Source of the DNA: a virus | DNA length: 39,194 bases | Reading direction: 5' to 3' (one strand) | Virus genome (UHGV): UHGV-0142770 | In this document: positions 6,683 to 28,892 of the stretch, piece by piece | Numbering within the stretch: the first letter of the stretch is position 1 | How the letters are laid out: every line of letters starts with the position of its first letter | Program-made: the position numbers and the translations under genes | The notes under the pieces: model-generated | Database searches by the model: none | What the model was told of the DNA's origin: nothing | The model's input: only the letters and a program-made list of their open reading frames with translations

Positions 6683-6754
6683 GTGGACGAAACAAAAGTC
6701 AGTGCTACACTCATTGACGCCACATTGAGGTGGCTTATAGATGGAAATTTCACA

Positions 6755-6916
6755 ATGAAAAAAGCATTTGCTGCACTGTTCGTTTTGTTGTCTCTGGTAG
6801 CTTCAACTCAGGCCTTTGCCGGTCGTTGTCAGCACGACAGCGATACTGCCGCTGACGGCTCCCGCTGCGGTGGGCGTTCTGCGGATTCCCGCCCGGGTGG
6901 CGGTGGCATTCGTTAA
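6755..6916 (+). CDS. Small secreted Gly/Cys-containing peptide (hypothetical)
   Basis: Internal ATG 6755 gives MKKAFAALFVLLSLVASTQAFA (signal peptide with AFA cleavage motif) plus a ~31-aa mature part with two Cys and a poly-Gly tail. Short and unrecognised, so tentative. Confidence 0.35.
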   Translation: MKKAFAALFVLLSLVASTQAFAGRCQHDSDTAADGSRCGGRSADSRPGGGGIR

Positions 6917-6939
6917 AAACAAGGCCGCGAAAGCGGCCT
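6915..6939 (-). terminator. Intrinsic terminator ending the minus-strand virion operon (after the lipoprotein gene)
   Basis: 7-bp stem AGGCCGC/GCGGCCT with GAAA tetraloop (6922-6939); on the minus strand a U-run follows (A-run 6915-6920 on +). Confidence 0.6.
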
Positions 6940-6954
6940 GTGACATGTCACGAC

Positions 6955-7368
6955 TTATAAAGATGACTGATATTTTACAACTCTGTTCATGGCATCTTTT
7001 TTCACCGAGCTGATATCAGTTCTTATTTTGGCTTCGTCATTACTGCTTATCATGCTATTAATTTTTTGCACTGACATGCCGTTTCTTTCAGCCATTGCAC
7101 ATACAGCAGCATCGTATGAAGAACTCGCTGCGATGGATATCACCTTGTTACACTCAAACACAGCACCTTCAGCAATATCAGATGCCGATGAGGCTGGCTT
7201 GGTATAAGTCTTGACGTAGTGATCAATACAACTATCCTTCGCCGTCTTGGCAAGAGAAAAATCCATTTTAACTTTGTCGCAATATGCCTTATCAACACCG
7301 TCATAAACATCATAGGATGTCGAGCAAGCGGATATCAAAAATACCGATAACAGCAATAATTCCTTCAT
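6955..7368 (-). CDS. Lipoprotein, last gene of the virion operon (candidate superinfection-exclusion factor)
   Basis: 137 aa; N-terminus MKELLLLSVFLISAC has signal peptide plus lipobox (ISAC); AT-rich; four further Cys. Confidence 0.6.
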   Translation of the reverse strand: MKELLLLSVFLISACSTSYDVYDGVDKAYCDKVKMDFSLAKTAKDSCIDHYVKTYTKPASSASDIAEGAVFECNKVISIAASSSYDAAVCAMAERNGMSVQKINSMISSNDEAKIRTDISSVKKDAMNRVVKYQSSL

Positions 7369-7377: not shown

Positions 7378-9852
7378 TTATTGCGGAGTGACATCCTGAG
7401 GTCGCCACCAGTATGTCTGGTTAAACTCTTTCTTCGAACGTTGCTCCATTTTACGCAAATAGCCTGGTGAAAAATACTCCTGCATCTGATTAAAGATCAT
7501 GTGATCGAGAGCCGCCTTCAAGTACCAGAGATTCGCACCAGGCATCAAACCTTTCCCAAGCTTAACCAGATCACCACCAGTCTGCTCATTCTTCCCTTCC
7601 ACAGCATTTAACGGTATGCCCTGAGCAATCTTCACTACGTCATCAACCAGACCAGCTACCGGGCCAAGCATCGACGCTAGTGCGCCGCTCCCGTACCTGG
7701 TGTGGTCAGAGAAAAGAAAATCACCATACAACCCTGCCCCACCACCTTTTAAAAATGCATTTATCCAGAATTTAACCATGTTGTCACCGGTCATTTCTTT
7801 TGGATTTCTCCCATTAATAAGATCAGTAATCTGCATGGAAAGAGCACCAAGCATGGTTGTGCTTGCTAAAAACGTTGCTATATATGCCGCACGCCCACCA
7901 GCAGACGGCATCCCCATAGCTCTATGCCAGTGACGCATAACTACCGAGATAGGGAACGATTTAAACAGGAAAACACTTCTCGTTAATTCACCTTTCCATG
8001 TTCCACGCTGAAGACCAGACCCTACGAACATCTGTTCACGTGCGCCCGGTGTAATAACAGCCATATCAACTTCTTCAGTTACGGCACCGAGCAGTTTACG
8101 CATTGCCTCAAATTTCACACGTTCAGGCTCACCAAGATGTTTAACTGCTGAATCAGGGATACGCATAATGCTTTCCGGTGTCAGCATCGTATTATTACCG
8201 TTCCCCCAGTCCTCCTGTTGCGCCAGCTTCCATACGCTCCAGTCTGTGTCAGTAATCCCTTTGCTTTTCAGGATACGAAAATCAGAGTCATCGAGGCTAC
8301 GAAGGTCTGGTGTCCGTGACACTACTTCTCCCAGGCTTCCCATCATGGTTACGCCATAAGCGCGCTTGTGCGCATCTGACCATGCTGTAAGCCCACTGGC
8401 ACGCATTACCGCCGTTGCCGCCCAACGAGACACTGACGGCCCCATATTATCCATCGCCCAGCGGTTAACGCTGCCAAGTAGAGATTCCATCGCCAGACCA
8501 GCGCGGCGCGCCCGCGCAAGTTCTGTACGGTTCGTTGGGTCCATAGCTTCAAGCTGGTTGCGGAATAACTGGTTCATTGGAAGGTTGGTAACCTTCGCAG
8601 ACAGATACATGGTTCCAAGATCAGAGAACGATGACAGCAACGCGGATCCGAGCCTGCTGGCAACCAGCCAGTTTCTGATATTGTCAGACCAGCGCGCGAT
8701 GTGAGGATTCGCAACAGGCTGTGTCTTTCCGGAAATAAAGTTGTACAGGTTCTCTGTTTTGTTCGCCAGCCGCTCGACGCTACCGGTTTTACTCGGGTTA
8801 GCTGTTGCCGTTTCTGCCTTCACCTGATCAAGAAGGGAACGGAAAACATGATCGGGGTTTGGACCATATGTTTCCACCAAAGCAATATCTTTACTGATCC
8901 CTTCCAGGTGACCGACCATGATTTCCCATAGAGAGCGATCGCCATAAAGTTGCTGATATTGCAGATAGGAATCTGCATCTTTGAAATGTATCTGTCGTGA
9001 TGCATTACCACGGTTAGCACGTGCGCCGGAAATTCGCATTCCGGTATCAGTAAGCTTATTCAGCCCACCAGTAGCGATCGTGTTATAAGCCTCTCCAAGA
9101 AATGCAGACAACTCGACATCGTTCATCAGTTGTCCATCGGCTCGGGTATAATATTTGCGATCCAGCTTACCTATAACATCGCTAACCCATTTATCTTTTG
9201 ATACCGCCCCAACCTTTTCCATAGAATGATGTTGAGGGATCCCCCAGTTTTCGAGATAGCCAATGTCCCCACCAGCATCATTAAACCGGCGGCGCAGTAG
9301 CTCTGTCACTTCTCTCCACGCCTTAGCACCTTTTCTTGCTTTAGCATTGCCAGTATTTTGCCCTCGCATTTCATATACCAGGTCACGCACGCCCGCTTCA
9401 TCTTCAAACAGGCCAAAAAAGCGAGGATCAACTGCTTCGAATGCCTCCTGCAATTGACTCAATGCATAATCACGAGTGGCTTTTGTTCTGGACTCAACAG
9501 AGAGGAAATTCGATTTACCGTCTGCATTAAAAGCAATAGTACGGTTAAGAGCGCCGAGTTTCCCATCAGCCCCTTGATAGCTATTGATAAATTTATCCAA
9601 TCTCTGACGTGCGGCTATAGTGAGGGCCACACGACGTTTATTTAATGCCGCTTCTCGCTGTAATTCTTCAGATGCCAATTGTGCTGCACGATATAGCCGC
9701 TCTGATTCGGAAAGTTGTCTCCACGACATCGGGTCATCACGAGCAATGGAGCGCATATTTCGATAAATGCGGTCTTCAATATTCTGTATTTCTCGCGCCG
9801 TTAACGTGCGCTGCGCCGCCTGCTGGACCGCTTGTATACATTCCTGTCTCAT
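7378..9852 (-). CDS. Large internal virion/ejection protein (T7 gp16-class by position)
   Basis: 824 aa, last of three consecutive large ORFs between tail tubular genes and operon end; no enzymatic motif recognised. Confidence 0.55.
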   Translation of the reverse strand: MRQECIQAVQQAAQRTLTAREIQNIEDRIYRNMRSIARDDPMSWRQLSESERLYRAAQLASEELQREAALNKRRVALTIAARQRLDKFINSYQGADGKLGALNRTIAFNADGKSNFLSVESRTKATRDYALSQLQEAFEAVDPRFFGLFEDEAGVRDLVYEMRGQNTGNAKARKGAKAWREVTELLRRRFNDAGGDIGYLENWGIPQHHSMEKVGAVSKDKWVSDVIGKLDRKYYTRADGQLMNDVELSAFLGEAYNTIATGGLNKLTDTGMRISGARANRGNASRQIHFKDADSYLQYQQLYGDRSLWEIMVGHLEGISKDIALVETYGPNPDHVFRSLLDQVKAETATANPSKTGSVERLANKTENLYNFISGKTQPVANPHIARWSDNIRNWLVASRLGSALLSSFSDLGTMYLSAKVTNLPMNQLFRNQLEAMDPTNRTELARARRAGLAMESLLGSVNRWAMDNMGPSVSRWAATAVMRASGLTAWSDAHKRAYGVTMMGSLGEVVSRTPDLRSLDDSDFRILKSKGITDTDWSVWKLAQQEDWGNGNNTMLTPESIMRIPDSAVKHLGEPERVKFEAMRKLLGAVTEEVDMAVITPGAREQMFVGSGLQRGTWKGELTRSVFLFKSFPISVVMRHWHRAMGMPSAGGRAAYIATFLASTTMLGALSMQITDLINGRNPKEMTGDNMVKFWINAFLKGGGAGLYGDFLFSDHTRYGSGALASMLGPVAGLVDDVVKIAQGIPLNAVEGKNEQTGGDLVKLGKGLMPGANLWYLKAALDHMIFNQMQEYFSPGYLRKMEQRSKKEFNQTYWWRPQDVTPQ

Positions 9853-9857
9853 TTAAT

Positions 9858-11660
9858 TTAACCTCTCAAGAAACACGCCACAGCGACATCAAACAGGCTG
9901 GAATCCTGTATTGCCTGCTCACTTTCCCTGTTCGCTTCATCCAGTACTTCACGCGCGCTGCGCGATTGTGGATTACCATCATCATCCAGCACGGTGATTA
10001 TCATGTCAGGTGATTCAAGCAGCGAGTCTTCAGCTATGCGCAGATCAATATCTCCTGCCTGATCCGCCATCATTTTTTGTTCTGCCTGTTGCAATATTTT
10101 ATCAGGCTCAAAAGGAGCTACTTCGTCTGGCGTCCTGACCTCTGCTGTTTTATAGAATGAAACAGCCTGAGCATTAAGTTCACTTTCTGCCTGCTGTCTC
10201 CGAGCCAGTTCTGCTCGAGCTTCAAAAAACTGACCGCCAGGCTCATGCGGTGCCAACGCGTTACGAGAAAATTCCAGGCGTTCTTGTGCCTGCCGGATTC
10301 GTTGGTCAATATCGCGAAGTCTGGCCTGTTTATCTGATCGAGCACGAGATAAAGCCTTACCGCTACCGGCTGAATCTTCTGCAAGAATTTGTGCGCGCTG
10401 TTCAGTGAGATTTTCAATAATTCGTTGGCTATTAGCGATTTCAGACTGGTAAACCTGTCTATCGCCACGCGGCAAAAGCTGCGCGGCCTGTTCTTCAAGC
10501 AACCGATTTTCTATAGCGCGCGCCGTTACTCCATCATCTACAGATGACAGAGCCTCATTAACTGCCTGAGAAAGCAGACTCTTGCGCCCAGGAATTTCAC
10601 TGAAAGATGCAGACTCAACAATGCTGGCAACGTCTACAGGTCTCCCCTGGCTAACATCAGACATGGCTTTTCGCAGAGCCTGAATGTGCGAATTACGCGA
10701 AAGCACGTTGATCGGCACGCCGGGAGCAATATCAATTTCAGCATGATGAGCGGCATTCGCCGCCAGTGCAGCATCGATATCAACTGGTGAAAAATTTGGT
10801 GCGCTTGTAGACTCGCCGCGAGAGTTAATAAATCTGCCGACACCACCAAACGCCACCCCAAGAACAGCATCAATAGCAATTGCCTGTCGATCCAACACAT
10901 CATACTGGTTAGCCATTTCGCTATAGCCACCATCACGAAGCGTTTTTGCAGTAAGCCCACGCTGTGCCATACCGAACGCAATATTTGTACCTGCGGCATA
11001 GGCAATATCTGGCGTTGCACGTACTGCTGTTGCTGCGGCGCGTCGCACTGAACTTTCACCCGTCCGCGCAAGCTGAGCCGCCACACCTTCCGCCAGCGCA
11101 CCACCAGCACGTAACCCGAGGCTCATAGGGATCAGTGTTCCGGCACCAGCAGTAATACCCTGCACTAATCCCGCTTCCTGCGCCGTCCTGAAATCAACAC
11201 CCTGTGCTGTCAGCCGTTCAAACTCAGAAAAACCCTGTAGAGAAGTTACCGCCGCAGCACCTCCGACCGGACCACCGAGCGTTGTACCGACAACAGCCTG
11301 CCCGCCCATATCGAACAACCCATGAAGGACCTGCCCGGCGGTTCCGGTTGTCGCGGCATCAGGCGTCAGCCGCTTAACCTGCTGCTCTGCTAGTTTTCTC
11401 TGCTCAGCAATGTATGAAACTGAAGTGTCATTGAGCGAGGTGTTTTCGTTAACAAACTGAGCTATCGGGGATACGATTTTATCCATCCCTGCCCATAGCA
11501 ACTGGTCTGGCTTTGCCACCAGCCCGGAGTACAAACCAGACAATGCCGCTCCTACAGCATTGTCGAAAAAACCAACATCGCTGTTAAAGCCAGCTGGATT
11601 TGATGCTGCTTCGTCAAGCTGCTGATTCTGGTTTACTGGATTAAGGCCAAAGTAACTCAT
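9858..11660 (-). CDS. Internal virion/ejection protein (Ala/Gly-rich)
   Basis: 600 aa, low-complexity Ala/Gly-rich segments with coiled-coil C-terminus; translationally coupled with the upstream gene (ATGA overlap at 11657-11660). Confidence 0.55.
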   Translation of the reverse strand: MSYFGLNPVNQNQQLDEAASNPAGFNSDVGFFDNAVGAALSGLYSGLVAKPDQLLWAGMDKIVSPIAQFVNENTSLNDTSVSYIAEQRKLAEQQVKRLTPDAATTGTAGQVLHGLFDMGGQAVVGTTLGGPVGGAAAVTSLQGFSEFERLTAQGVDFRTAQEAGLVQGITAGAGTLIPMSLGLRAGGALAEGVAAQLARTGESSVRRAAATAVRATPDIAYAAGTNIAFGMAQRGLTAKTLRDGGYSEMANQYDVLDRQAIAIDAVLGVAFGGVGRFINSRGESTSAPNFSPVDIDAALAANAAHHAEIDIAPGVPINVLSRNSHIQALRKAMSDVSQGRPVDVASIVESASFSEIPGRKSLLSQAVNEALSSVDDGVTARAIENRLLEEQAAQLLPRGDRQVYQSEIANSQRIIENLTEQRAQILAEDSAGSGKALSRARSDKQARLRDIDQRIRQAQERLEFSRNALAPHEPGGQFFEARAELARRQQAESELNAQAVSFYKTAEVRTPDEVAPFEPDKILQQAEQKMMADQAGDIDLRIAEDSLLESPDMIITVLDDDGNPQSRSAREVLDEANRESEQAIQDSSLFDVAVACFLRG

Positions 11661-14170
11661 TGCGGAATATCTCCGGAGAATCTCTGACGCTTCTGTGTCA
11701 GATTAAGAACAACGGGAGAACCATCATCTTTCAGCAGATAACCAGTACCAAGTTTCACCAGGTACTGACTATCGCCGTAACTTTGCAAACCATACTGACC
11801 AGGCGGTGTTTTTATCCCGGAGCCGACAACTTGTTCATTCCAAGCCTGATTAACCTGCTTATCGAATTGCTCTGCAGACATTCCCCACGGCAAAAGGACA
11901 TTCCCCATTCCGTTATAGTCATGCACGCCACCTGTAGCTACGTTAACAGCCTGTTTCCAGACATCATTGTCAATTTCGCCTGATACCACGCCTTTTTTCG
12001 CCATCACACCAGCGTAATAATCCTTTGCGATCTCGTATGCCATTGATGCCCCCTGAGCGTCACCAGCAAATGCATCCTTCACCATGTCAGAAAACTCAAG
12101 GCGAAGATCAGCATCTTTAGGCATCGGAATACCTTTCGCATCATCAGTACCTTTACGAGCCGCCGCGCCAGCAAGAATTGTCTGCGCAGCGGTTTCAGGA
12201 GACACGGAAACATCCGGATTAAACCAGTTTTTTTCTGCCAAAATACCACCAGGCTTATCCATCAGTATCCCGGCAACGGCAGCAGATGGAGCGTTGGTAC
12301 TGATCTGCTGTAGTGCTGACATATACACCTGCCCACCACCAGTGCTCTGCCTGATGGTATCGAGATATGCTGCCTGTTGGGAAACTGGAGCATCACGAAA
12401 GAAAACACCGATCTGATTGGCCTCGTCTTTGGAAAAGAACGTCAGTGGAGTGCCATATGACTTAGCAAGGTCACTGACCTGAGCGGCACGCAAGGCAACG
12501 CTCTGTCCAAAGTTATCCTTATTGCTCATGTCGATAGGCTTTGCCTGTCCGGAGGCAAGAGAGAACTGCACAGGATCCGACTGCCGCTGCTTTATCACCT
12601 GATTTGCAGCCGAAACAACGTTGTCATAAAGAGCTGCGCGTGCCGCATAGCCCTCCCCTGTATCACCAGTATCCGGGCGTAATTGCTCAACATATGCTGT
12701 AATGCTGCTTGTCGGCATGTTGCGGAAAGAGCCTATATACTGTCCGGCGATCTGCGTATTCTTAAACTCGGTATATCGCAGGTTTCCTTCTCTGACTCCA
12801 TAAGCTGCAATAAAATCAGCCTCACCAGGTGGGTTAGGAAATTCAACGCCACGCATATACGCAGCTGTCGCATCGCGAACTTGGCTGTCAATCATCGTTT
12901 TATATTCAGCCTGCTGCTGCCGACGCAGTTGATCCGCCTGTCGCATAAAACTTGCCTGCGCCTCAGGAGATGCCGCATCGAATGCTGCATTACCGGTATA
13001 GCGTTTGGTGTTGGTTGGAATTGTTGATAAACCAAGTGCTGCACTGACACCAGCAGTTAACTGCTGATCACTGTATGGCTGGCTACCGTTCTCATGATGG
13101 ATAATGGCTGCACAAAGCGCCTTCAGGGTATCAGGATTTGATGCATCGAGAGGCTCATCAGCAGAAACGCCAAGTTGTTCGCACACTGCTTTGATATACG
13201 ACATAGTGTCATTTTTATCAGTAGGCGGTGCCCAGCGATTAATTATCTCGCTGACGGTATCAATACCCTGCCGCTGATACGACATCAGGTTCCGCCCTAA
13301 TGCACGAATCCCGTGTTCAGGTGTTTCGAATTTAGCAAATCTACCATCATCACCGGTCTGGCCTACCCACGGATTAGTTTTGCTGTATTCGAGATTTCCG
13401 GGGTTATTGTTGCGTATGCCACGGACACGCTCGGAAGAGCCACTATCTGTTACAGCACGGCGAGCTCCAGCAGCAGTATCACTTAACTCGCCATTACTTT
13501 GGATGAATGCGGTCGCATTGTTTGCCGACCACTGGGACAATGCTGCATCAGCAACCTTCTCTTTAAACTCGATTTTCTTGGTCTGTATTTGCTCGTCGCT
13601 CCAGCCATGTGCAGCACCGTACTCCTCAATTTGCTGGAAAGTTTGCTTATTAGCCAATACGTATGCGGCATTGTCGCCATACAATGCTGCGGCATTTTTA
13701 CCATTGTTCAGCAGCGTCGCCTGAAACTGACCTTCTTCGTAGGCATTAATTTGCCCTATCTCGTGCCGCCCGGCCTGCGTAGTGAACTGAATGCGCTGCT
13801 GCTGCGCCTGCTGCATGAAAGCATTACGAGCCTGTTCATCCGGCAGCGACATAGCCAGTTGTTCGACCTGAGCATCAAACTGCTGCGTATACTCATGGCC
13901 TTTTCCAATAGCATTTTTCCCTTTCAGGTTAAGCAAACCTGTTTCAGGGTTATTCAGCAGATCACTGCTTATCTGACTGAGGTTAAGAGATGCCTCCTGA
14001 GCCAGAGCGATATTGGCACGCTGTTTTGCCTGCCCCAAAACATCAATTGCCTCTGTCCCTGCCCGAACAAAAGCATCACCAATACCTGGCTGAGAAAACG
14101 TCTGCAAGCCTGCTGACTGAACTCCACGGCTCTCAACCTGGCGTCCGGATACTGTTGGTACGACTGGCAT
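11657..14170 (-). CDS. Internal virion protein with putative peptidoglycan-hydrolase region (gp15/gp16-class)
   Basis: ATG at 14170 with GGAGG 6 nt upstream, overlapping the upstream stop. Contains GIRNNNPGNLEY...FAKFETPEHGIRALGRNL, which I recall from virion-associated cell-wall hydrolases. Confidence 0.6.
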   Translation of the reverse strand: MPVVPTVSGRQVESRGVQSAGLQTFSQPGIGDAFVRAGTEAIDVLGQAKQRANIALAQEASLNLSQISSDLLNNPETGLLNLKGKNAIGKGHEYTQQFDAQVEQLAMSLPDEQARNAFMQQAQQQRIQFTTQAGRHEIGQINAYEEGQFQATLLNNGKNAAALYGDNAAYVLANKQTFQQIEEYGAAHGWSDEQIQTKKIEFKEKVADAALSQWSANNATAFIQSNGELSDTAAGARRAVTDSGSSERVRGIRNNNPGNLEYSKTNPWVGQTGDDGRFAKFETPEHGIRALGRNLMSYQRQGIDTVSEIINRWAPPTDKNDTMSYIKAVCEQLGVSADEPLDASNPDTLKALCAAIIHHENGSQPYSDQQLTAGVSAALGLSTIPTNTKRYTGNAAFDAASPEAQASFMRQADQLRRQQQAEYKTMIDSQVRDATAAYMRGVEFPNPPGEADFIAAYGVREGNLRYTEFKNTQIAGQYIGSFRNMPTSSITAYVEQLRPDTGDTGEGYAARAALYDNVVSAANQVIKQRQSDPVQFSLASGQAKPIDMSNKDNFGQSVALRAAQVSDLAKSYGTPLTFFSKDEANQIGVFFRDAPVSQQAAYLDTIRQSTGGGQVYMSALQQISTNAPSAAVAGILMDKPGGILAEKNWFNPDVSVSPETAAQTILAGAAARKGTDDAKGIPMPKDADLRLEFSDMVKDAFAGDAQGASMAYEIAKDYYAGVMAKKGVVSGEIDNDVWKQAVNVATGGVHDYNGMGNVLLPWGMSAEQFDKQVNQAWNEQVVGSGIKTPPGQYGLQSYGDSQYLVKLGTGYLLKDDGSPVVLNLTQKRQRFSGDIPQ

Positions 14171-14715
14171 TATAATCCTCCGGGTAATCTGGTTCCTGCT
14201 GCTGCCCCGATTGGCGCAGGGGTGCTTTGAGTAAACGGACTCCACGTCCCACCAAACATCTGGTACGCACCGTATGCCTTCAGAGGCGCAGTGAGCAATG
14301 TTGTTGCTGCTCCCACATTCCCCTGTTTACGGGCTGAACTGGCTTCTGCTTTATAGTTGGCAGCCTGAACCTGATAACCGTAAGCCTCGCGTTGCGCGTT
14401 ATTCACCGTCGTCAGCGAATCAAGAGCGCCAAACTGAGCAGTGTCACCAAATATATCCAGCGCGTTACCGGTAGATAAATCAGCGCCGGTAGCCCCCATT
14501 GTCGCCGCCTGTGTACCAAGCCGCTGTCGGGTCTCTCTGCGCCGTTGCTCAGCTTCAGCGTTACCCCTGTTTATTGCATCATTTGCCTGAGCTGTGGCTA
14601 TATCTGCGTTCGCTTCTGCAACCTTCGAGGCATACTTTCCCTGTTGGTACTGGGTGTATGCCTGAATGCCACTCATGGCGAGCATTGCGCCACCAGCAAT
14701 AACCGGATCGCACAT
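14170..14715 (-). CDS. Internal virion protein (T7 gp14-like by size and position)
   Basis: 181 aa, Ala/Gln-rich, between the gp13-like and gp15-like ORFs. Confidence 0.45.
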   Translation of the reverse strand: MCDPVIAGGAMLAMSGIQAYTQYQQGKYASKVAEANADIATAQANDAINRGNAEAEQRRRETRQRLGTQAATMGATGADLSTGNALDIFGDTAQFGALDSLTTVNNAQREAYGYQVQAANYKAEASSARKQGNVGAATTLLTAPLKAYGAYQMFGGTWSPFTQSTPAPIGAAAGTRLPGGL

Positions 14716-15179
14716 TATTTTCTCTCCATGTGAAATCTGTGGAAATTAAGACCAAGAGCACCATAAGGCGCGGCTTCTTCAAGCCTGAATCCAAGCCAGT
14801 GCAGCCATGCTTTGGCAACATGGTTTCGCTCGTCGACATAGTTTTCCAGGCGCGGATAAACTGCCAGCATCTGCTGCAATACAGGGCGGCAGTGGCGAAG
14901 AAATGTCTTCTGATATTTTTCGATACGGCTGGTTCCGACCAGCCAGGGCGTACCATTGCCACCGATCATTGACGCCGGAGATACGCCAAACATGGTTACC
15001 AGTTCTCCGTTCGCAAATCCTGACCAGGCCATAGTCGCAGTACGCAGACCAACACGCAGCGCATCTTCGGTAGTCATCAGCGATACCGCATACAGTTCGT
15101 CAATATCAGCCTGACGAACATCCGGCAAAATCATCTGAAGATGCTCTTCGGTAGCGGGAATAATTTGAACGTCGATCAT
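14715..15179 (-). CDS. Virion-module protein (T7 gp13-like by position)
   Basis: 154 aa, coupled to neighbours (start/stop overlaps at 15179 and 14715); function not recognisable. Confidence 0.45.
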   Translation of the reverse strand: MIDVQIIPATEEHLQMILPDVRQADIDELYAVSLMTTEDALRVGLRTATMAWSGFANGELVTMFGVSPASMIGGNGTPWLVGTSRIEKYQKTFLRHCRPVLQQMLAVYPRLENYVDERNHVAKAWLHWLGFRLEEAAPYGALGLNFHRFHMERK

Positions 15180-17650
15180 CAGAATCCCCCAACAGTAAGG
15201 CGAGGAATAACGGCAAGAACAGACAGCGGCAACGGATCAAGCTGACGGATTTTTACACGTCCGTTTTTGCCCCAGTTACTGTCCAGTTTCACTTCTACTT
15301 TTCCGGTAGCATCATCAACAGGATCATCGTAGAACTCGAATTCACGCTGTGGATATTCGTACCATTTACCGCCAGGCGTAGTGGCCCAGATGCCGCGACT
15401 GGCATTCACAACCAGAGTAACGGATGGGATCACCTGTTTTTTGTCCAGCAGCGTTTCCTGTCCGTTAATGTTGATATCCAGTGTTTCGAATTCAGCAGTT
15501 ATTGGCAGGCCGATGTGCACCACAGCCCCCGGAGATTCCAGCGTGACGGCACCTCCGGAAACTACTTTCTGTGGTTCCACGTTCGCATCAGAGAGAATGT
15601 TTACGGTCTGGCCTTCAAGATGAGACAGGCCTCCAAATGTCCGGCGCGCCATCTGCCAGTTCGTGGTGCCCACATTCCTGAGGGATGGCGGGACGTTCCT
15701 GTTAGCACGAACCACTACAGCGGTATTGCTGGTTACAGAAATGATGTCGCAACGTAATTCTTTTGACACTTCATCGCCAGTATCAGGATCAGTTCCGGTA
15801 TAAGGGAACTGTAGTTGCGCGCCGACATCACTACTGGTGAAGTACGCACCACCAGAAACACTGATTGTATATTCCGCGCGGTAATCCCATTCGCCAGAAC
15901 CACCAGTGATGATCATCGTTCTGTCAGACGTATTTCTTCCATCATAGCTAAGGCCAGAATCAACAAAGAAAGCATCTTCATCGCTGGTAAATAAACGGCT
16001 GGACAGTCGCTCGATGTATCTCACTGTTTGCCCGTTAACGGTTCGGTTAACGACGAAATACACCGCATCTTCATTGCCTTCGCTGATACTGCATGTGCTT
16101 TCATATTTTCCGGTACTGGATTGTGGTGCCCATGCAAAAACCTGCTGATCACGCAAATAGGTCATCACCAGTAATTTACCGTCATCACGGATGCAGAAGG
16201 CGCTGGAGTAAGGGACTATTGAGAAGCACCAGTCAACAATGCTGTGCTTCTGAAAAAGATGATTGGCAAGGATAGTAAGGTCGTTCCCCTGATAGCCGTC
16301 AACATCGAATGAGTAGGCGAGATCACGGACAACACTGCCTTTCTCCTGGACGAACAGAGCAATATTCGCCACGGCAATTGGTGGGACATTGCTCGAGCCA
16401 TTTGATCCCTGAGAGCTGAATGCAAATGATGATGGGGTAAGCACTTTGTTCTGGTCGCCAGTGATGACGTACTCACCTCCGGAAGTCAGCGCCACCAGCG
16501 AACCAACATCAATCAGGTGACGGATCTCATTAACCTGACGCCCGGCATAGGTGTAGATAATTCTGTCGTCATCCTGCGTAGGATTGCTTTTGCCAAAATC
16601 CTTATAATCCCCAGTACGGCTGGCCCAGATAGTCTGAGGGAACGCAGTCGATGCGGCGAAGTAAAGACGTTGTTGATAATAAACAACAGTGCCAGGATAA
16701 CCATTAACACTGTTCCAGGCATATTTAGCCCATTTATAGCTGGCATTATCCTCGCCAACGACCTGCGAAGGGATATAGGAAATCACCTCGGCAGTTGCAG
16801 TAGTGCCGTTTACAGCAGTGATACGGGTAATGCCAAAACCACTGTGCAGATACTCCCACTCAATGCCAGTATCATCATCACCGGATCCGCCCCAGCCATC
16901 CCATGATGTGCCTTCTGTATGCGAAGGGCGCAAAGTGCCTGTTTTGCCTGCTGTAACGGCGCGATAGTAGTTACTGTCTGCACGGCGAATATCGCCAATC
17001 GACGTACTCTTACTGGTTTCCCATACCGGCACTGAATCCACTGCAGGCTGTTCCAGATAGAACAATTTGCCTACCTGCTCCGCGCCAAAAATAGAGGCGC
17101 TTGCCGTTAACGTAATTGTCCCGGTGCTGGCGCTGGCATAAACCGTCACTGACTCGTCAATATTGATATCTTCAAATGGCCCGTTCTTCGTTACCACATC
17201 AACCAGTTGCCAGTTGTCATGCGCATAGCGGCGCAACTCTTTCGGCGGGTATGCCGGGTGAACCAGCGTAAGCACGTCGGCGCTTTGCGTAAATTTAATT
17301 CGGAACAGATCGGCTTCAGTATATGGCGTGGCAATTTCATAAATAACATTGCTGCTGTTCAGCACCAACGCACCATCTTTGATAACGCGCATGTACTGGT
17401 GCCCGAACTCCAGAGCATAGGTCTGAACCGTCGAGAACTGGAACGGGATCAGGCGGCATTTCCGATTTGGGTATTTGGCGGCACCGACAAAACGCGTACC
17501 AGGTCGATTCTCAACGCCGCCATACTGCCGCACGATAAAGTTATCGCACTTGCGCAATGCCACCTGGTACTTCGCCATGTCGATACGACCGTACAACGAC
17601 GGTCCAATCTCACCACCGGCAAAGCTGGGCTGGATCCAACTGATAGCCAT
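15179..17650 (-). CDS. Tail tubular protein B-like (nozzle, T7 gp12-like)
   Basis: 823 aa directly after the gp11-like gene; N-terminus (AGGEIGPSLYGR...VENRPG) follows the gp12 N-terminal pattern; size matches gp12 (~794 aa). Confidence 0.55.
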   Translation of the reverse strand: MAISWIQPSFAGGEIGPSLYGRIDMAKYQVALRKCDNFIVRQYGGVENRPGTRFVGAAKYPNRKCRLIPFQFSTVQTYALEFGHQYMRVIKDGALVLNSSNVIYEIATPYTEADLFRIKFTQSADVLTLVHPAYPPKELRRYAHDNWQLVDVVTKNGPFEDINIDESVTVYASASTGTITLTASASIFGAEQVGKLFYLEQPAVDSVPVWETSKSTSIGDIRRADSNYYRAVTAGKTGTLRPSHTEGTSWDGWGGSGDDDTGIEWEYLHSGFGITRITAVNGTTATAEVISYIPSQVVGEDNASYKWAKYAWNSVNGYPGTVVYYQQRLYFAASTAFPQTIWASRTGDYKDFGKSNPTQDDDRIIYTYAGRQVNEIRHLIDVGSLVALTSGGEYVITGDQNKVLTPSSFAFSSQGSNGSSNVPPIAVANIALFVQEKGSVVRDLAYSFDVDGYQGNDLTILANHLFQKHSIVDWCFSIVPYSSAFCIRDDGKLLVMTYLRDQQVFAWAPQSSTGKYESTCSISEGNEDAVYFVVNRTVNGQTVRYIERLSSRLFTSDEDAFFVDSGLSYDGRNTSDRTMIITGGSGEWDYRAEYTISVSGGAYFTSSDVGAQLQFPYTGTDPDTGDEVSKELRCDIISVTSNTAVVVRANRNVPPSLRNVGTTNWQMARRTFGGLSHLEGQTVNILSDANVEPQKVVSGGAVTLESPGAVVHIGLPITAEFETLDININGQETLLDKKQVIPSVTLVVNASRGIWATTPGGKWYEYPQREFEFYDDPVDDATGKVEVKLDSNWGKNGRVKIRQLDPLPLSVLAVIPRLTVGGF

Positions 17651-18258
17651 CAGGACAACCTCGCAATGGTAAACTCATCAACCGGTGGCTGTGGTTCCTG
17701 TGATTCATTCTGGCTATGCGAGCCAGCACTAAGAATCACGCGATTGTACATATTGAGGGCAAACGTACCGAGGTCTGCATTCCCAGTCAGCGCCATGTTA
17801 ATAGCTGCCGCAAGACGCCAGGCCAACGCCTCCATAAAAATGGCATCAAACATGTTCACATCTGTAACGCGAGAGACATACTTGAGCCATGCCTGAGGCT
17901 GATCTGTGTAGATCAACTTTCCTGTTCCGTTGGTGTCTGCACCAACTTCGTACTGAACGCGCATTGATGCTGTTGGATTGCGTACACCAGGAAGCATAAT
18001 TTCAGTAATGCGCAGACAATCTGACGGGTACTGGTACGCATATTCCCAGTCAGGCGGTGGATTGCTCGTATCTGCAAGCGCCACGCGTTTGGTAGCAAAG
18101 TTCCAGTCAAAATCAGAAAGCACAGCATCACGGCAGGCCTCAAAGTGCAGCGAACATTCCCCCGCTTCCTTGCTGGCTTCCGTCAGGCTGTTAATGCTGC
18201 GGCTGTTGCCAATATTGGACAGCGCACGATTACAGATCTCTACTACAGAGGCCATCAC
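17650..18258 (-). CDS. Tail tubular protein A-like (gatekeeper/adaptor, T7 gp11-like)
   Basis: 202 aa (T7 gp11 is 196 aa); N-terminal CNRALSNIGNSRSINSLTEA...DFDWNF follows the gp11 pattern ILASIGEPPVSTLEG...SRGWTF. Confidence 0.6.
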   Translation of the reverse strand: MMASVVEICNRALSNIGNSRSINSLTEASKEAGECSLHFEACRDAVLSDFDWNFATKRVALADTSNPPPDWEYAYQYPSDCLRITEIMLPGVRNPTASMRVQYEVGADTNGTGKLIYTDQPQAWLKYVSRVTDVNMFDAIFMEALAWRLAAAINMALTGNADLGTFALNMYNRVILSAGSHSQNESQEPQPPVDEFTIARLS

Positions 18259-18578
18259 TCACCTCCGTTACCGTACAGAGTTTCAGCCGCTGATTTTTCT
18301 ACATCCCCGGAAACAGGAGCGATCGCCATATCAGTGATCTGCAGATCGGCGCTGCGATTAACGCCATCGTCAGTTTCTCTGGCAGACAGGCCTCGAATAA
18401 CAGCCTTTGCAGTTATCATCACTTCTGTTCCGACGCCCTTAGGTTGCGCCTTCAGCTTATTCAATGTGTCGTTATTCAGCGTGATGCACAGCCCCCACGG
18501 GTATTCATCGCGAGTTCTGGTTTCTCCGCTCTCATCCTGGTAGCTGTCAGTGCCGGTTTTGAGGTTTACGAGTTCCAT
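18255..18578 (-). CDS. Small virion-module protein (hypothetical)
   Basis: ATG 18578 with AGGAG 5 nt upstream (track start 18584 is GTG). Confidence 0.5.
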   Translation of the reverse strand: MELVNLKTGTDSYQDESGETRTRDEYPWGLCITLNNDTLNKLKAQPKGVGTEVMITAKAVIRGLSARETDDGVNRSADLQITDMAIAPVSGDVEKSAAETLYGNGGE

Positions 18579-18628
18579 ATACACTCCTGCAATAAAGGGG
18601 CCGAAGCCCCTTGTCTGATCCGCGAGGC

Positions 18629-18964
18629 TTACACGCCCAGTTCTTTACGCTTATCTGCGATCTTCTCGCGGAGCGTTTCGGCTTTGGCGTTATGGTGTGG
18701 CTTCTCGTTAAAGAGCAATTCGTACTCTTCACGGAGCTTATCCAGTTCACCATCATCTGACACATCGTTGATGATTTTGGTGCTGATTGCTGCCATTGAC
18801 ACCTTTCCTGCAACTTTTGCTTTTGCCTGTCTGGCTGCATCGTTAACAGGTTCCAGTGCGCTACCAGGCTCACCTTCGTATTCGATTTCTGCCCCCTCCG
18901 GCCACAGAGTGTTATGGATATGAGAGAGGCGCAGAACGCGGTATCTTGGTTTCTCACCTGACAT
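18629..18964 (-). CDS. Small virion-module protein (hypothetical)
   Basis: ATG 18964 with AAGGTGA 6 nt upstream; charged, coiled-coil-like. Confidence 0.5.
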   Translation of the reverse strand: MSGEKPRYRVLRLSHIHNTLWPEGAEIEYEGEPGSALEPVNDAARQAKAKVAGKVSMAAISTKIINDVSDDGELDKLREEYELLFNEKPHHNAKAETLREKIADKRKELGV

Positions 18965-18974
18965 CGATATCACC

Positions 18975-19412
18975 TTAACCAGTTACTTTTGAGCGGATCG
19001 GATACGGCGTATTGGCATCAACATCAAGACTGATACCAGCAGTGAATTCGCCAGCCGTTAGTGGGCCAGTTGCGACGGAGTAGTTAACACGCAGATATCG
19101 CTGAACACCGGCAGGCACCTTTGCAGAAACAACTCGTTTACCTGCTGTCAGGGCGGTCTTTGCCAGTGCGCCACTATCATAAATAGTGGTCCATGAGCTG
19201 TTATTCTCACTCGTCTGCAACTGGATGTTTACAGTTGCATCACCGCTTGCCGTGGCGGCTGTGCTAACCAGCACCCAAAACTCAAGCGGGTAACCCACGC
19301 CGATATCACGACGTTTTCCGTCAATTGGACCGAGATCGATTACGTCAGTAGAAGCCGCGGTATCAGTTACCGCCTGTGCTTCGGAGAACATCAACAGTTT
19401 GTCGGTGATCAT
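18975..19412 (-). CDS. Capsid accessory/decoration-like protein (hypothetical)
   Basis: 145 aa immediately after the major capsid gene; Ser/Thr/Ala-rich, beta-rich composition. Confidence 0.45.
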   Translation of the reverse strand: MITDKLLMFSEAQAVTDTAASTDVIDLGPIDGKRRDIGVGYPLEFWVLVSTAATASGDATVNIQLQTSENNSSWTTIYDSGALAKTALTAGKRVVSAKVPAGVQRYLRVNYSVATGPLTAGEFTAGISLDVDANTPYPIRSKVTG

Positions 19413-19463
19413 CTTCTTTCTCCATTAGTGGGTCTGTTACGACCCACAGGTTAATAACAGGCG

Positions 19464-20456
19464 TTACACCACGCGGGCTTCTGTTTCCAGAAGCGCATCA
19501 GTTTCACGGATTGGTACACCACGGAATGACGTCCACCACTCGCCTTCAGTCTCTTTTACGCTAATCGCCAGAGATGTTTTCTCCAGAGACTGCAAATCAA
19601 GAGCCTGGCCTACAGTGCGGTTCATGTAGAACACCGGGCGCCCCATGCCACGGTTTGGAATGCGATGCAGTGCTTTAACCATCAACTTCGCAATATTTGC
19701 GGCAGAGGAAGGTTCTGAAAGATTGCTGACATCGATGTTTGCAATGCGAACAACATAACGCCAGTCACGCAGAGCAAGTCCGTTATCCCATTTGTAATGG
19801 GTACGGTAGCCTTCGTACTTGCCGCCATTAGCATCTTCCAGTGTCACCTGGCCTTTATCTTCCATCTGAATGCCAGCCTTCTGCCCTTTCGGGAAGATGC
19901 CATGCACGGTGTTTTCGCCCCACACCACTAACCAGATTGAGGTGTTATCTGTACCCGTGCCACCAGCATCAATGATGTTCTGAGCATTACCTGCAGACAG
20001 GCTGGAATAGCGGGAGGACAGTCCCATAAACTGCTGAGGGTTAACGCTGGAATCACCATAAAACAGCGTCTGCGCCATCTGCTGATTCATCGCTTCAATA
20101 AATGCGCGGTCTTCAGACAGGCGGAATTCGGCGGTATTGCCGTTCAGATCAGCCAGTGACTTATCGACTTCAGCATAGGTTTCCAGCATGCCAACGGAAT
20201 CGGTTACCTGCACTGTGGTTGATTTGCTTGGCTGTACGCCATAGTTCAGCAAACGCCAGGTAGCTGAAGGTAAACCAGAACGAATGGTGGTTCGGTGTCC
20301 GGTAGGAAGGTTCCCTTCGACAAAAGGCATATCCTGAAGGATCGGGTTAGTTTGACCGAGAAGCTCGATAATCTTATCGACTTTCCCGTTTGGATCGACG
20401 CGCTTACCCCAGTCAGCCAGCGTTAGCGCAGTTAAGCCTTTAACAGCCATTGTCAT
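19464..20456 (-). CDS. Major capsid protein
   Basis: 330 aa, directly after the scaffold gene; size and position are those of a podovirus major capsid protein. Confidence 0.8.
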   Translation of the reverse strand: MTMAVKGLTALTLADWGKRVDPNGKVDKIIELLGQTNPILQDMPFVEGNLPTGHRTTIRSGLPSATWRLLNYGVQPSKSTTVQVTDSVGMLETYAEVDKSLADLNGNTAEFRLSEDRAFIEAMNQQMAQTLFYGDSSVNPQQFMGLSSRYSSLSAGNAQNIIDAGGTGTDNTSIWLVVWGENTVHGIFPKGQKAGIQMEDKGQVTLEDANGGKYEGYRTHYKWDNGLALRDWRYVVRIANIDVSNLSEPSSAANIAKLMVKALHRIPNRGMGRPVFYMNRTVGQALDLQSLEKTSLAISVKETEGEWWTSFRGVPIRETDALLETEARVV

Positions 20457-20464
20457 TTCCTCTC

Positions 20465-21166
20465 TTATTTGCCATAGAGCACTTCGGCCGCACTACGCTG
20501 GCCTTCATTACCACCGGTGACCATGCCATCTTCAGACATCGCCTTTCCGATTTTCACGAACGTTTTGACCAGATCAGGGTGATTACCCAGCCCGGTGGTG
20601 TTCAGATATTCTTTGAGTTCAGGTGTCCCGAACTGGTCAAGCGCACGCTGTGCGGCGCTAAGGTTAGAAATCAACTTGTCGCCACCGATTTCTTTGTCAG
20701 CTTTTACATCCGCAGCCCACTGCTCGGTTGTTTTCTGCCAGGCTTCTGCCTGGCGCTGCTGAACACCTGCCAGAATCTTCGGATAAGCATCAACCAGCTT
20801 TTGCGCTTGCTCGTTGGTCAGGTTAAGTTCTCGCGCCACCGGCTCGAATTCCTTCAACGCTTCTGTATCCAGCTCTACGCCTTCGGCAGCCTGAAACTCG
20901 TACTTCTCAGGCGCACCCTCTGGTTTATCGCCGTCCTTTTTTTCATCCTGCTTATCGTTTTCAGGCTTTTTGTCATCAGCAGGTTTATCGCCATCAGCAA
21001 CAGGTTGTGGCTTATCACCTTCCTGTTGTGATGGATCACCAACTGGAGCAGGGTTATCACCTGCAGGCGCTGACGGTTCTGACGCAGCCGGAGCTGCTCC
21101 ACCATCGACTGGTTGCTCATTGCAAAGACGGCGATACAGCAAACGCTCAAATAAATTCATGATCAC
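20465..21166 (-). CDS. Scaffolding protein
   Basis: 233 aa, highly acidic/basic low-complexity (Asp/Lys/Pro/Glu-rich) N-half and helical C-half, between portal and capsid. Confidence 0.7.
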   Translation of the reverse strand: MIMNLFERLLYRRLCNEQPVDGGAAPAASEPSAPAGDNPAPVGDPSQQEGDKPQPVADGDKPADDKKPENDKQDEKKDGDKPEGAPEKYEFQAAEGVELDTEALKEFEPVARELNLTNEQAQKLVDAYPKILAGVQQRQAEAWQKTTEQWAADVKADKEIGGDKLISNLSAAQRALDQFGTPELKEYLNTTGLGNHPDLVKTFVKIGKAMSEDGMVTGGNEGQRSAAEVLYGK

Positions 21167-21459
21167 TCCTGTTCACTGGCCTCTTTGGCCATCTTCAAAT
21201 ACTGTTCAGGGCAATGCGCCATAACGCGCTGAAACAGTTCCAGCGCCAGATTGCGTTGCCCCTCATTAAATGCCATTGCCATAGCGTCCATCGGTGAGAT
21301 AGCGGAAAACACACGGCCTTTCTCCAGCACCGACCAGACAACGCGACGCCCCTGTTCACTGCTCATGACAAAGCGAATGTCATCAATTTCACGCTGCGCC
21401 ATGTCACGTTGCTTACGGGCGTTTTCTTCTTTCAGTTGATCGTCTTCGTAATCTGTCAT
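21163..21459 (-). CDS. Small head-module protein (hypothetical)
   Basis: 98 aa, coupled to portal and scaffold genes by overlapping start/stop. Confidence 0.45.
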   Translation of the reverse strand: MTDYEDDQLKEENARKQRDMAQREIDDIRFVMSSEQGRRVVWSVLEKGRVFSAISPMDAMAMAFNEGQRNLALELFQRVMAHCPEQYLKMAKEASEQE

Positions 21460-23135
21460 TGTGATTGCCCACCCTGACCACTAACTGCATTCGCCATAGC
21501 TGACAAAACACTCGGATCCGAAGTTTTAGCTTCGCTTAGCGTCTTGGCACCCTGTGCCGCCGCCATCCCCATCGCCATCATTTGTTGCTGCTGTTGCTGC
21601 TGTGCCCGTTGCTGGCGAGCATGCTCAACCTGTTCCTGCGGAACAATGACGGTTGGAGACACTCCGGACATATCAGCGAATGCATCGATCGCCTGATCAA
21701 CGTTGAGTTTGTCGAGAGCTTCTGGTTTCGCTTGCGCAAGTTGACCAATGAAGTTAACCGTGGACGCCAGACTGGACAGGCCGATAGACTTCTGCGCCTG
21801 AGCCATGACGGAAATGTATTCGACCTTCAGGGGCATGCCTTCCATCGCGTCAGGCGGTGGCGGCAGCATGTTTTTACGCACCATCATCGAGAAAGCGCGG
21901 TCAATGAGAGGATTAAGACATTCGTCGTTCAGACGCTCCAGAACCGGCCCCAACATCAGAAGTTTTTCTTCTTTCATTTCGATCACCGCTTCAACAGGCA
22001 TCGAGCGGGTATTGATGTTCTGCAACATCATGAACAGATCGACAAAGTAGGCGCTGTTAATGATTTGACGAGTGTCCTGAATGTCTGCCACCAAATCTGC
22101 TGTACTGGGGTTAACCAGATAAGCAGGCCTGAAGCCATCCTGACCAGTAATCTGATCGATATACGTGATGTCGCCAGGAAGAAGGGAGGCGCGCTGATTC
22201 TTGAGGGAAGTCGGAGCAACCATCGGCGGATTGGTGGCTTTATCAATCAACTGCGACTTGCGCTTCTGGAGAAGCTGCAATGCCTTAACAGGTCCAAGCG
22301 CCAGCATACCCGGGCATGATGATCCATAAACATCTTCGCCGTTAACTTCCCAGCGCGGAGCCATAATTGGAAACTCATCGAATCCGGACTCACGCAACAA
22401 CTTGTCGTTATCGCCACCAACCTCGTAATAAACCGATTTGAATGGCTTGTTCTTGCTATCCAGCTTCGATGTATCGCGGTCAATGTTCGGGTAAACCGAA
22501 TGCATCACTTCAATCCACTTCTCGTAGGTGCCGCTTTCCCACATGCTTTTTACGGATTCGCTGACGTTATTTAGCCCGAACTCCTGAACAAGCTGACGAA
22601 CAGTCATAGAGAACTTGCGAAAACAGGTGTCCACACTGCCACGAGGTGAGTTAGCCAGGTAGTAACTGCCTATCGGGAATGGCATTGTGCGAATGATGTC
22701 CTCGTCATCCTCCAGCACTGCCATTGCACCAGTGCTGTATGTGCCGAGGCTTCCGTATAACTGCGGCAGCGACTGATAGAGATTCGACTTATTGAACATA
22801 TCGTTCATGCGGTTCTGCACCGCCTCAAGCCACAACTTAACAGGGCCATAATCCATCATTTCAGGATCTGGCGTAGCCAGGCGAAACCACGGACGCGCGG
22901 GGCTTGTGATGCCTGACATCATGCCGCTGGCGAGAGTGCGCGCCGCCATAGTCCCGGTCGAATCAATAATGCGTGTATTGCGTCGATCGTTACGGTTGAC
23001 CTCAGAAGTCAGAAAGCGGGAACCACGTGGGTTGATGTAATCACTCAACTCGCGCCAGTGCGGCTCGAACGACTGACGCTCGCTTTCAAGTTGTGCGAAC
23101 TGTTTGTTCAATCGCTCTTTAGTTGTTTCCGCCAT
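21456..23135 (-). CDS. Portal (head-tail connector) protein, T7 gp8-like
   Basis: 559 aa, first large gene after terminase; Gln-rich C-terminus (QQRAQQQQQQQMMAMGMAAAQ); size and position match podovirus portals. Confidence 0.8.
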   Translation of the reverse strand: MAETTKERLNKQFAQLESERQSFEPHWRELSDYINPRGSRFLTSEVNRNDRRNTRIIDSTGTMAARTLASGMMSGITSPARPWFRLATPDPEMMDYGPVKLWLEAVQNRMNDMFNKSNLYQSLPQLYGSLGTYSTGAMAVLEDDEDIIRTMPFPIGSYYLANSPRGSVDTCFRKFSMTVRQLVQEFGLNNVSESVKSMWESGTYEKWIEVMHSVYPNIDRDTSKLDSKNKPFKSVYYEVGGDNDKLLRESGFDEFPIMAPRWEVNGEDVYGSSCPGMLALGPVKALQLLQKRKSQLIDKATNPPMVAPTSLKNQRASLLPGDITYIDQITGQDGFRPAYLVNPSTADLVADIQDTRQIINSAYFVDLFMMLQNINTRSMPVEAVIEMKEEKLLMLGPVLERLNDECLNPLIDRAFSMMVRKNMLPPPPDAMEGMPLKVEYISVMAQAQKSIGLSSLASTVNFIGQLAQAKPEALDKLNVDQAIDAFADMSGVSPTVIVPQEQVEHARQQRAQQQQQQQMMAMGMAAAQGAKTLSEAKTSDPSVLSAMANAVSGQGGQSQ

Positions 23136-23149
23136 TTCAATGACTCCGG

Positions 23150-23356
23150 TTACTGACCAAGCAGCGTTTTACCGCTGGTATTAGCGGTTGATGTGTCGCC
23201 CTGAGAACCGGTAAGCAGCGTAGAACTACGACCAGCAGCAGCGCGACGGCGACGAGTTTCTTCGTCGCGGGCATCAACAACGGCGGCATCCTGCTCCTGT
23301 GGTGCTGCCTGAACTTCTGGTGTTGCAGGCACTGATGGTGAGCTACCCATGCACAT
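23150..23356 (-). CDS. Small ORF upstream of portal (hypothetical)
   Basis: 68 aa, ATG 23356 with GGAG 8 nt upstream; low-complexity sequence, so uncertain. Confidence 0.35.
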   Translation of the reverse strand: MCMGSSPSVPATPEVQAAPQEQDAAVVDARDEETRRRRAAAGRSSTLLTGSQGDTSTANTSGKTLLGQ

Positions 23357-23446
23357 ATCAATGACTCCGTACGCAATTAAATTATTACCAATTTAACCAC
23401 ATATGATTTATTTATCGTAGATAGTTGACATTTAACGCACAAATTA

Positions 23447-23461
23447 TTACCTTTCAGGTAA
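23447..23461. promoter_or_regulatory. Candidate repressor operator TTACCTTTCAGGTAA, 17 bp downstream of a TTGACA hexamer (23425-23430)
   Basis: Perfect palindrome, identical 16-mer to the site at 4557-4572, between the portal operon start and the tRNA. Confidence 0.5.
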
Positions 23462-23783
23462 GCAAAGAGTTCATTCCGGTTATTAACCTGACTGGCTTGT
23501 CGTTAAATTGAACAGGTGGAGTGAGCTTTTATTTTGAGCAGTACGGCGTATGGCACATGCGCCGATAGCGGTCTGGATACGTTTAAGGGGCACCCTCCCT
23601 TGCTCGGGCAAACGAACCAGGTAGCCGGAATGTGCAAGTCGAGCGGTTTTATTCCGCGCACGGGGATTCACCATCCCGGCGATTCGGTGTGACGCCTCGG
23701 AAGAGACGAGGGTACAACGATGAGAGCATTTATGGAGCCGCGACAAAGTGTGGTGCCTTAACAGGCTAAGTGCTCTCAGCGTT

Positions 23784-23860: not shown

Positions 23861-23903
23861 GAATCACGCCTAAGGACCGTGATGCCAGAAGTTCCAGGTG
23901 CTT

Positions 23904-28891: not shown

Positions 28892-28892
28892 A

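Follow-up and report, generated by a model that had tools for sequence, protein, structure and literature searches.

The virus genome UHGV-0142770, a stretch of 39,194 nucleotides that we refer to as a whole as the window, carries between positions 7378 and 23135 a run of virion genes that an initial annotation had described as a T7-like module set in a temperate lambdoid genome. This locus raises the question of whether it is such a mosaic or the virion operon of a phage type that is already known. Genome comparisons combined with family and profile searches point to the second answer: we put at roughly 93% the probability that this is the virion morphogenesis operon of a temperate podophage of the phiV10/epsilon15 type (genus Uetakevirus), integrated in Escherichia coli.

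A very probable Uetakevirus prophage

The region coincides exactly with the ends of open reading frames (ORFs), running from the portal start at 23135 to the stop of the last ORF at 7378, and all of its large ORFs lie on the minus strand. When 7378-23135 was compared by megablast with 50,697 phage records, phiv142-3, vB_EcoP_ZX5 (ZX5), phiV10, and O157 typing phages 9 and 10 matched with 97.7-97.8% DNA identity at 100% coverage; Enterobacter phage Tyrion was about 82% identical and Salmonella phages PAT1 and epsilon15 about 75-76%. The match to members of the genus extends over window 1-24900 (96.3% identity over 80%) and, for phiV10, PAS61, and phiv142-3, over window 23000-39194 (96-97% identity over 53-81%). 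By classification, both phiV10 and epsilon15 belong to Uetakevirus. A tblastn search of 47 window ORFs against phiV10 found all structural proteins full-length and 96-100% identical, and phiV10p06 to p20 each paired one-to-one with a window ORF in the same gene order. We therefore regard the window as one more example of a phage type that is already known, not as a new kind of element.

The likeness goes beyond the virion genes, as phiV10, phiv142-3, and ZX5 (NC_007804, MN187550, and MW722083) have the same gene order and the same integrase, repressor, P, terminase, and GH19 lysis cassette. The window differs from phiV10 in its accessory ORFs (DUF4760, 137 amino acids [aa], and 282 aa) and in parts of the early region. 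With epsilon15 (NC_004775), the type species of Uetakevirus, it is syntenic gene for gene from gp3 to gp17, followed by a separate tailspike, gp20 in epsilon15, and it keeps the staple gp10, the muralytic gp15, gp16, and gp17; the two differ in that DNA identity is about 75% over part of the module only and that epsilon15 has its own distinct serotype-conversion genes.

Several features place this phage in a chromosome. Positions 1-229 of the window are host DNA (the 3′ end of yfgI and an intergenic stretch), and phage matches begin at position 230. The same prophage adjoins yfgI in E. coli PCN033, which fits the integration at the 3′ end of guaA that has been shown experimentally for ZX5 (PMC9782041). 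The other end of the window, 39194, is the integrase start codon, and the integrase-proximal attachment site (guaA side) lies beyond it. Consistent with the temperate habit of Uetakevirus, Pfam recognized both an integrase and a helix-turn-helix repressor, and host DNA flanks the element. Podovirus morphology has been reported for the relative ZX5 (PMC9782041).

The initial annotation had called the combination of a T7-like virion with lysogeny genes uncommon, a view that the genome counts overturn. Window 1-25000 is present to 80% or more in at least 204 of 5,426 complete E. coli genomes. The clusters at 90% identity hold 4,579 member sequences for the tail nozzle and 3,855 for the 824-aa protein encoded by the last gene of the operon, and the family of the latter comprises 5,117 clusters at 50% identity (E values up to 1e-3). 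The architecture is common in Enterobacteriaceae and is the standard, already described design of a named genus; phiV10, at 97.7% identity, was sequenced in the 2000s.

A T7-type portal on a head of another type

All virion and terminase genes described below lie on the minus strand. The portal (21456-23135) is of the T7 gp8 type: it scored 624 bits against PF12236, a family in which T7 gp8 itself scores 379 bits, and the two proteins match each other's PHROGs reciprocally (phrog_332 and phrog_449). It is also a homolog of the portal of Carin-1, a Cobetia marina phage (8ck0_A, E value 1e-178). A P22-like phage, with a P22-type portal, a gp4/gp10/gp26 tail hub, and gp7/gp20/gp16 ejection proteins, was rejected: the portal is of the T7-type PF12236, and no P22-named family was listed among the Pfam or PHROG matches of the tail and internal proteins. 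An N4-like reading was also considered and rejected.

After the portal gene come a Bbp19-like small head protein (21163-21459; PF25181, 62.8 bits) and a 233-aa protease/scaffold candidate homologous to epsilon15 gp6 (20465-21166; phrog_458 "protease", E value 2e-111; RefSeq "peptidase"), for which we found no match in Pfam or among sequences of the Protein Data Bank (PDB). The major capsid protein (19464-20456; PF20911 GP7, 497 bits) is of the BPP-1/epsilon15 type. Among PDB sequences it is closer to BPP-1 (3j4u_A, E value 9.5e-129) than to epsilon15 gp7 (3j40_A, E value 2e-85), and its solved relatives rank as BPP-1 3j4u, then Carin-1 and epsilon15 gp7. It is followed by a Bbp16-family capsid cement protein (18975-19412; PF21190, 159.5 bits, and so named in RefSeq), a 114-aa homolog of epsilon15 gp9 (18629-18973; phrog_590, 98% identical to phiV10p12), and a capsid staple of the epsilon15 gp10 type (18255-18584; PF21628, 174 bits). 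A cement protein of the Bbp16 type and a staple of the epsilon15 gp10 type are thus encoded together in one module (18255-20456).

The scaffold and capsid had been taken to be T7-type, and neither attribution survives. No Pfam match to the PF05396 scaffold was obtained, the scaffold position being occupied by the 233-aa "protease", and the capsid belongs to PF20911, not PF21703. The head is not of the T7 type but has a BPP-1/epsilon15-type capsid with cement and staple proteins.

The terminase genes stand upstream of the portal, as had been stated and unlike in T7. The small subunit (26369-27043; Pfam Terminase_2, 103.9 bits) is 99% identical to phiV10p01 and the large subunit (24897-26372; phrog_2, E value 8e-53) is 98.8% identical to phiV10p02. 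A 68-aa homolog of epsilon15 gp3 (23150-23356), 100% identical to phiV10p06, lies next to the portal gene.

Adaptor and nozzle

The two genes after the staple had been called gp11-like and gp12-like. Their products, a 202-aa head-tail adaptor (17650-18258; phrog_394 tail protein) and an 823-aa tail nozzle (15179-17650), would be the functional equivalents of T7 gp11 and gp12 by homology to Carin-1 and to the Legionella phage LME-1. For the adaptor, the homologs are the "Connector Protein" 8ck1_E of Carin-1 (E value 3.5e-26) and the LME-1 adaptor 9efk_T (2.9e-5); for the nozzle, they are the "Tail Nozzle" 8ck1_A of Carin-1 (3.7e-217) and 9efk_M, the nozzle of LME-1 (1.9e-15). Solved portal-adaptor-nozzle-spike complexes are available for Carin-1 (8cjz/8ck0/8ck1) and LME-1 (9efk). 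The portal, adaptor, nozzle, capsid, and spike N-terminal domain of the window are sequence homologs of their Carin-1 counterparts, and the adaptor and nozzle of those in LME-1; both phages differ from the window phage in their distant sequences (E values of 1e-5 to 1e-15 for LME-1), hosts, and receptor-binding domains. The portal, adaptor, nozzle, and fiber N-terminal domain of LME-1 structurally resemble those of T7 (PMC12407071), and its tail parts are most like those of Carin-1, which is called "another T7-like virus" in the same study (PMC12407071). In addition, a RefSeq note on epsilon15 gp11, the adaptor homolog, records an HHpred match to T7 tail tubular protein A (3j4b).

Neither the adaptor nor the nozzle is joined to T7 gp11 or gp12 by any link in Pfam, PHROG, BLASTP, or hhalign, and a loose PHROG scan (E values up to 5) gave no cross-matches to phrog_446, 457, 1339, and 342 of T7. 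The gp11/gp12 equivalence therefore rests on the solved structures of the homologs and on the third-party HHpred note, and this reading of the two proteins is supported indirectly: the homology to the Carin-1 and LME-1 adaptors and nozzles stood up, and the direct family match to T7 did not.

Five probable internal proteins after the nozzle

Three to four internal proteins had been counted after the nozzle. The block there comprises five ORFs, of 154, 181, 837, 600, and 824 aa.

The first two share families with T7 proteins. The 154-aa internal virion protein (14715-15179) is gp13-like, and phrog_308 is matched end to end both by this protein (E value 9e-63) and by T7 gp13 (1e-42). The 181-aa protein (14170-14715) belongs to the T7 gp14 family of internal virion (ejection) proteins, scoring 31.2 bits against PF24072 T7_gp14 (gathering score 27), and the RefSeq name is "virion core protein, T7 gp14 family".

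The 837-aa internal virion protein (11657-14170), an epsilon15 gp15 homolog, has a muralytic domain. Its start at 14170 was deduced from the phiV10p18 start and from the start of the PHROG alignment. The domain, at residues 249-398, is homologous to the N-terminal end of Gp29, a phage protein of 1295 aa (9vvp_L, E value 4e-38), and to endolysin 7q47 (3e-17), and the protein has PHROG endolysin and injection-transglycosylase matches; the Pfam SLT family does not match it. In carrying such a domain, the protein is analogous to T7 gp16.

The 600-aa protein (9858-11660; phrog_1145) is a homolog of epsilon15 gp16 and probably an ejection or assembly protein, its ejection role being a prediction. 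It is connected to the 824-aa protein by P0261, a 2126-aa natural fusion with a 600-aa-like N-terminus (E value 4e-30) and an 824-aa-like C-terminus. In some relatives, giant proteins of 2078-2913 aa carry the 824-aa family as their C-terminus.

The 824-aa protein (7378-9852) is the one that had been called a gp17-like fiber. It is a homolog of epsilon15 gp17 (phiV10p20), annotated in both phages as "virion structural protein" and assigned to phrog_684 under the same name, and the match in gene number between epsilon15 gp17 and T7 gp17 is a coincidence. We found no fiber or gp17 signal on it: the protein has no Pfam match even at E values up to 10, its family profile finds no solved homolog among PDB sequences, it has no PHROG in common with T7 gp17, and hhalign against gp17 gave an E value of 0.72. 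A different T7 protein was matched instead. Residues 241-671 align collinearly with residues ~718-1155 of T7 gp16 over 393 columns (hhalign score 37.5, E value 0.0019), using profiles of 35 sequences for the 824-aa family and 8 for the C-terminal part of T7-group gp16. Thirty column-shuffled controls scored at most 24.6 and the reversed control 25.9, all below 37.5. A low-confidence structural model is almost wholly helical, which we treat as weak evidence. An hhalign comparison of the 824-aa family with T7 gp15 found no equivalent of that protein. Taken together, the missing fiber signal, the helical model, the gp16 alignment, and the P0261 fusion favor an internal or ejection role, and we consider the 824-aa protein probably an ejection protein rather than a fiber, as predicted from its sequence relationships.

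The tailspike lies outside the operon

The true gp17 counterpart is encoded apart from the module, as a 671-aa tailspike at 2438-4453, outside 7378-23135. Its N-terminal 179 aa match the spike of the Carin-1 tail complex (8ck1/28lx, E value 5e-35), and it has phrog_1640, 27277, 2710, and 8460 in common with the N-terminal domain of T7 gp17. The Pfam family Phage_T7_tail (PF03906) matched at 19.8 bits, below its gathering score of 25.2. The protein further has a pectate-lyase-like and an S74 intramolecular chaperone domain, an architecture that has also been described for the ZX5 spike (PMC9782041). The gp17-type anchor thus sits on this spike and not on the last gene of the operon.

Only the N-terminal 165 aa of the tailspike resemble the phiV10 spike (69% identity), and for most of its receptor-binding part (2438 to ~3800) the phage collection contains nothing closely similar. 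Unlike in phiV10, no O-acetyltransferase (oac) gene was found between the spike and the holins. The unmatched receptor-binding domain and the absence of oac imply that the window copy may have a different O-antigen specificity, a proposal that we put forward tentatively. The PCN033 prophage has, at the same position, a 671-aa ORF annotated as "glycosyl hydrolase family 28-related protein".

A divergently transcribed segment (4631-6660) separates the tailspike gene from the virion operon. Within it, Rfam identified an isrK small RNA at 4989-5065 (74.7 bits) and, at 5084-5171, a C4 antisense RNA (78.6 bits), both directly upstream of a Bro-N antirepressor ORF on the plus strand (5175-5912). The stretch 4989-5912 thus resembles an antirepressor cassette under C4 control, in the style of P1/P7. 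Two further ORFs have no phiV10 counterpart, a DUF4760 ORF on the plus strand (6121-6660) and a 137-aa ORF on the minus strand (6955-7368; phrog_8691) directly downstream of the 824-aa gene. The PCN033 prophage has a YafO-family toxin gene in place of the 6121-7368 region.

How close is the relationship to T7?

The claim of a T7-like module in a temperate genome can now be divided. The gene order from portal to internal proteins is real and, by family searches, collinear with T7 genes 8-16; the call of a fiber in the last position was wrong. The podovirus virion genes include T7-family members at profile level, namely the portal (PF12236), gp13 (phrog_308), and gp14 (Pfam). The head is not T7-type, and neither are the capsid, cement, terminase, lysis, replication, and lysogeny genes. 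Like T7, the window phage has the order portal, assembly protein, capsid, adaptor, nozzle, gp13, gp14, and large internal proteins, one of them muralytic, followed by a fiber or spike that has a gp17-type N-terminal anchor. Unlike T7, it is temperate and has no RNA polymerase (a Pfam scan of all ORFs of at least 400 aa, which were assigned structural, terminase, or integrase roles, found no single-subunit enzyme), its terminase is upstream and of another type, its muralytic domain lies inside the 837-aa protein with the gp16 C-terminal-like region on the separate 824-aa protein, and its spike gene stands apart from the module with the divergently transcribed antirepressor region between them. 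Read as a statement about deep homology, a temperate genome with a T7-like tail and ejectosome is a reasonable description.

Several points weigh against reading the region as a podophage virion operon with a T7-related tail and ejectosome. Compared by BLASTP with T7 gp8, gp11, gp12, and gp17, the window proteins showed no significant similarity. The Pfam families Tube and Phage_nozzle (PF25675) fail to match the adaptor and nozzle, and the nozzle profile, which is shallow, fails to find T7 gp12 in hhalign. The alignment with gp16 gives the 824-aa protein a weak link only (14% probability in hhalign, at the E value of 0.0019). AlphaFold2 models of the 824-aa protein and the nozzle reached a predicted local distance difference test score of 36.6 and 40.0, too poor for a test of fold; the homologs in their input alignments were all at least 82% identical.

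Of the other explanations, the one that survives best, though we hold it to be very unlikely, is that a lambdoid temperate phage captured a virion cassette of the T7 group (Autographiviridae), gp17-type fiber included, to give an unusual mosaic of recent origin. It would account for the collinearity with T7 genes 8-16, for the portal, gp13, and gp14 families common to both, and for the high-identity segments of Stx-converting and Salmonella phage records in the early region. Against it, no protein is significantly similar to its T7 counterpart in the pairwise BLASTP comparisons, so that any common ancestry with T7 is ancient and does not reflect a recent capture. Epsilon15, phiV10, Tyrion, and PAT1 share the full architecture with one another and with prophages numbering in the hundreds. 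The capsid and its cement belong to the BPP-1/epsilon15 type, and the gp17 signal falls on the spike at 2438-4453 with none on ORF 7378-9852. We consider recent capture largely refuted already.

That the window is a defective or cryptic remnant whose virion genes no longer function is less likely still, for although it is integrated in a chromosome, its structural ORFs, terminases, integrase, repressor, and lysis genes are full-length, untruncated, and 83-100% identical to those of viable phiV10, and near-identical genomes have been isolated as the infectious phages ZX5, phiv142-3, PAS61, and HEMP4. The virion operon of a Uetakevirus prophage remains the reading that we adopt.

Early region and accessory genes

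Most of the temperate backbone was confirmed by family searches. Pfam recognized the integrase (37944-39194), the GH19 endolysin (836-1465), the helix-turn-helix repressor (33511-34095), and a DnaT/HTH_36 initiator (31926-32759), and the integrase, the terminase genes upstream of the portal, and the GH19 endolysin had all been called correctly. The CI/Cro pair was upheld for the repressor, beside which lies a divergent 76-aa ORF; this Cro candidate has no family match. Likewise, the O/P replication genes were half right: the lambda P homolog (31144-31944) scored 191 bits against the lambda P family, but the initiator is of the DnaT/HTH_36 type rather than lambda O. Further backbone genes confirmed were an MT-A70 methylase, two holin-family proteins, and a DUF2514 spanin. 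NCBIfam returned no useful names.

The plus strand encodes a PDDEXK/RecE-like exonuclease (34700-35521) and RecT (35518-36399). They are separate, overlapping ORFs here and one RecE-RecT fusion (p37) in the phiV10 annotation, and the RecT of phiV10 shares only 74% identity with the one here. The early region together with the terminase genes (window 23000-39194) matches 680 phage records, many of them Stx-converting phages at 90% identity or more, and Salmonella phage records also share segments of at least 90% identity. These matches support the view that modules are still being exchanged with lambdoid phages.

Between the large terminase gene and the portal, a 1.5-kilobase insert with low guanine-plus-cytosine content (~23360-24900) carries a tRNA-Arg gene (anticodon tct; 23784-23860, plus strand) and a 282-aa ORF (24052-24900, plus strand; phrog_4780), which is present in the PCN033 prophage and missing from phiV10 and phiv142-3. 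Applied to the accessory ORFs, PADLOC gave only weak matches of this ORF to families of long ATPases such as DndD, LmuB, and JetC (E value 2e-5 or weaker, at most 21.5 bits), and we took them as coiled-coil noise.

Discussion

The assignments above suggest how the virion may work. In this working model we take identities, families, and synteny as found, and we infer the stoichiometry and the ejection roles of the 600-aa and 824-aa proteins. A terminase of the Sf6/P22 type would package DNA through the T7 gp8-type portal into a BPP-1/epsilon15-type capsid of HK97 fold, strengthened by the Bbp16-like cement and the gp10-like staple. Twelve copies of the adaptor (202 aa) and six of the nozzle protein (823 aa) would form a short T7-style tail, on which six trimeric tailspikes (2438-4453) would dock, at both adaptor and nozzle, through their T7 gp17-type N-terminal domain; by analogy with epsilon15 and phiV10, the spikes would recognize or cleave a surface polysaccharide, probably O-antigen. 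The five downstream proteins (gp13-like, gp14-like, 837, 600, and 824 aa) would be packaged as an internal core or be needed for its assembly, and on infection would be ejected, so that peptidoglycan is digested and a channel is built across the envelope.

Within this scheme, the functions of T7 gp16 may be split in epsilon15-like phages, the 837-aa protein having the muralytic activity and the 824-aa protein a channel or motor region like the C-terminal part of gp16. As with the O-antigen specificity, we regard this as a conjecture that is somewhat more likely to be wrong than right.

As a discovery the element carries little weight, for the near-identical phages phiV10, ZX5, phiv142-3, and epsilon15 have already been sequenced, isolated, imaged, and classified. 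Its modest value lies in a corrected annotation, in which the true spike gene is found and five post-nozzle proteins are assigned internal or ejection roles. If gp16 functions are indeed split, these phages would offer a second, differently partitioned ejectosome design to set beside that of T7. An internal core has been reconstructed by cryo-electron microscopy for PhiM1, with focused classification (PMC11440229). The ejectosomes of Carin-1-type phages have yet to be resolved structurally (PMC11440229), and the weak but controlled alignment of the epsilon15 gp17 family with the C-terminal region of gp16 from T7 could guide structural work on ejectosomes outside the T7 group.

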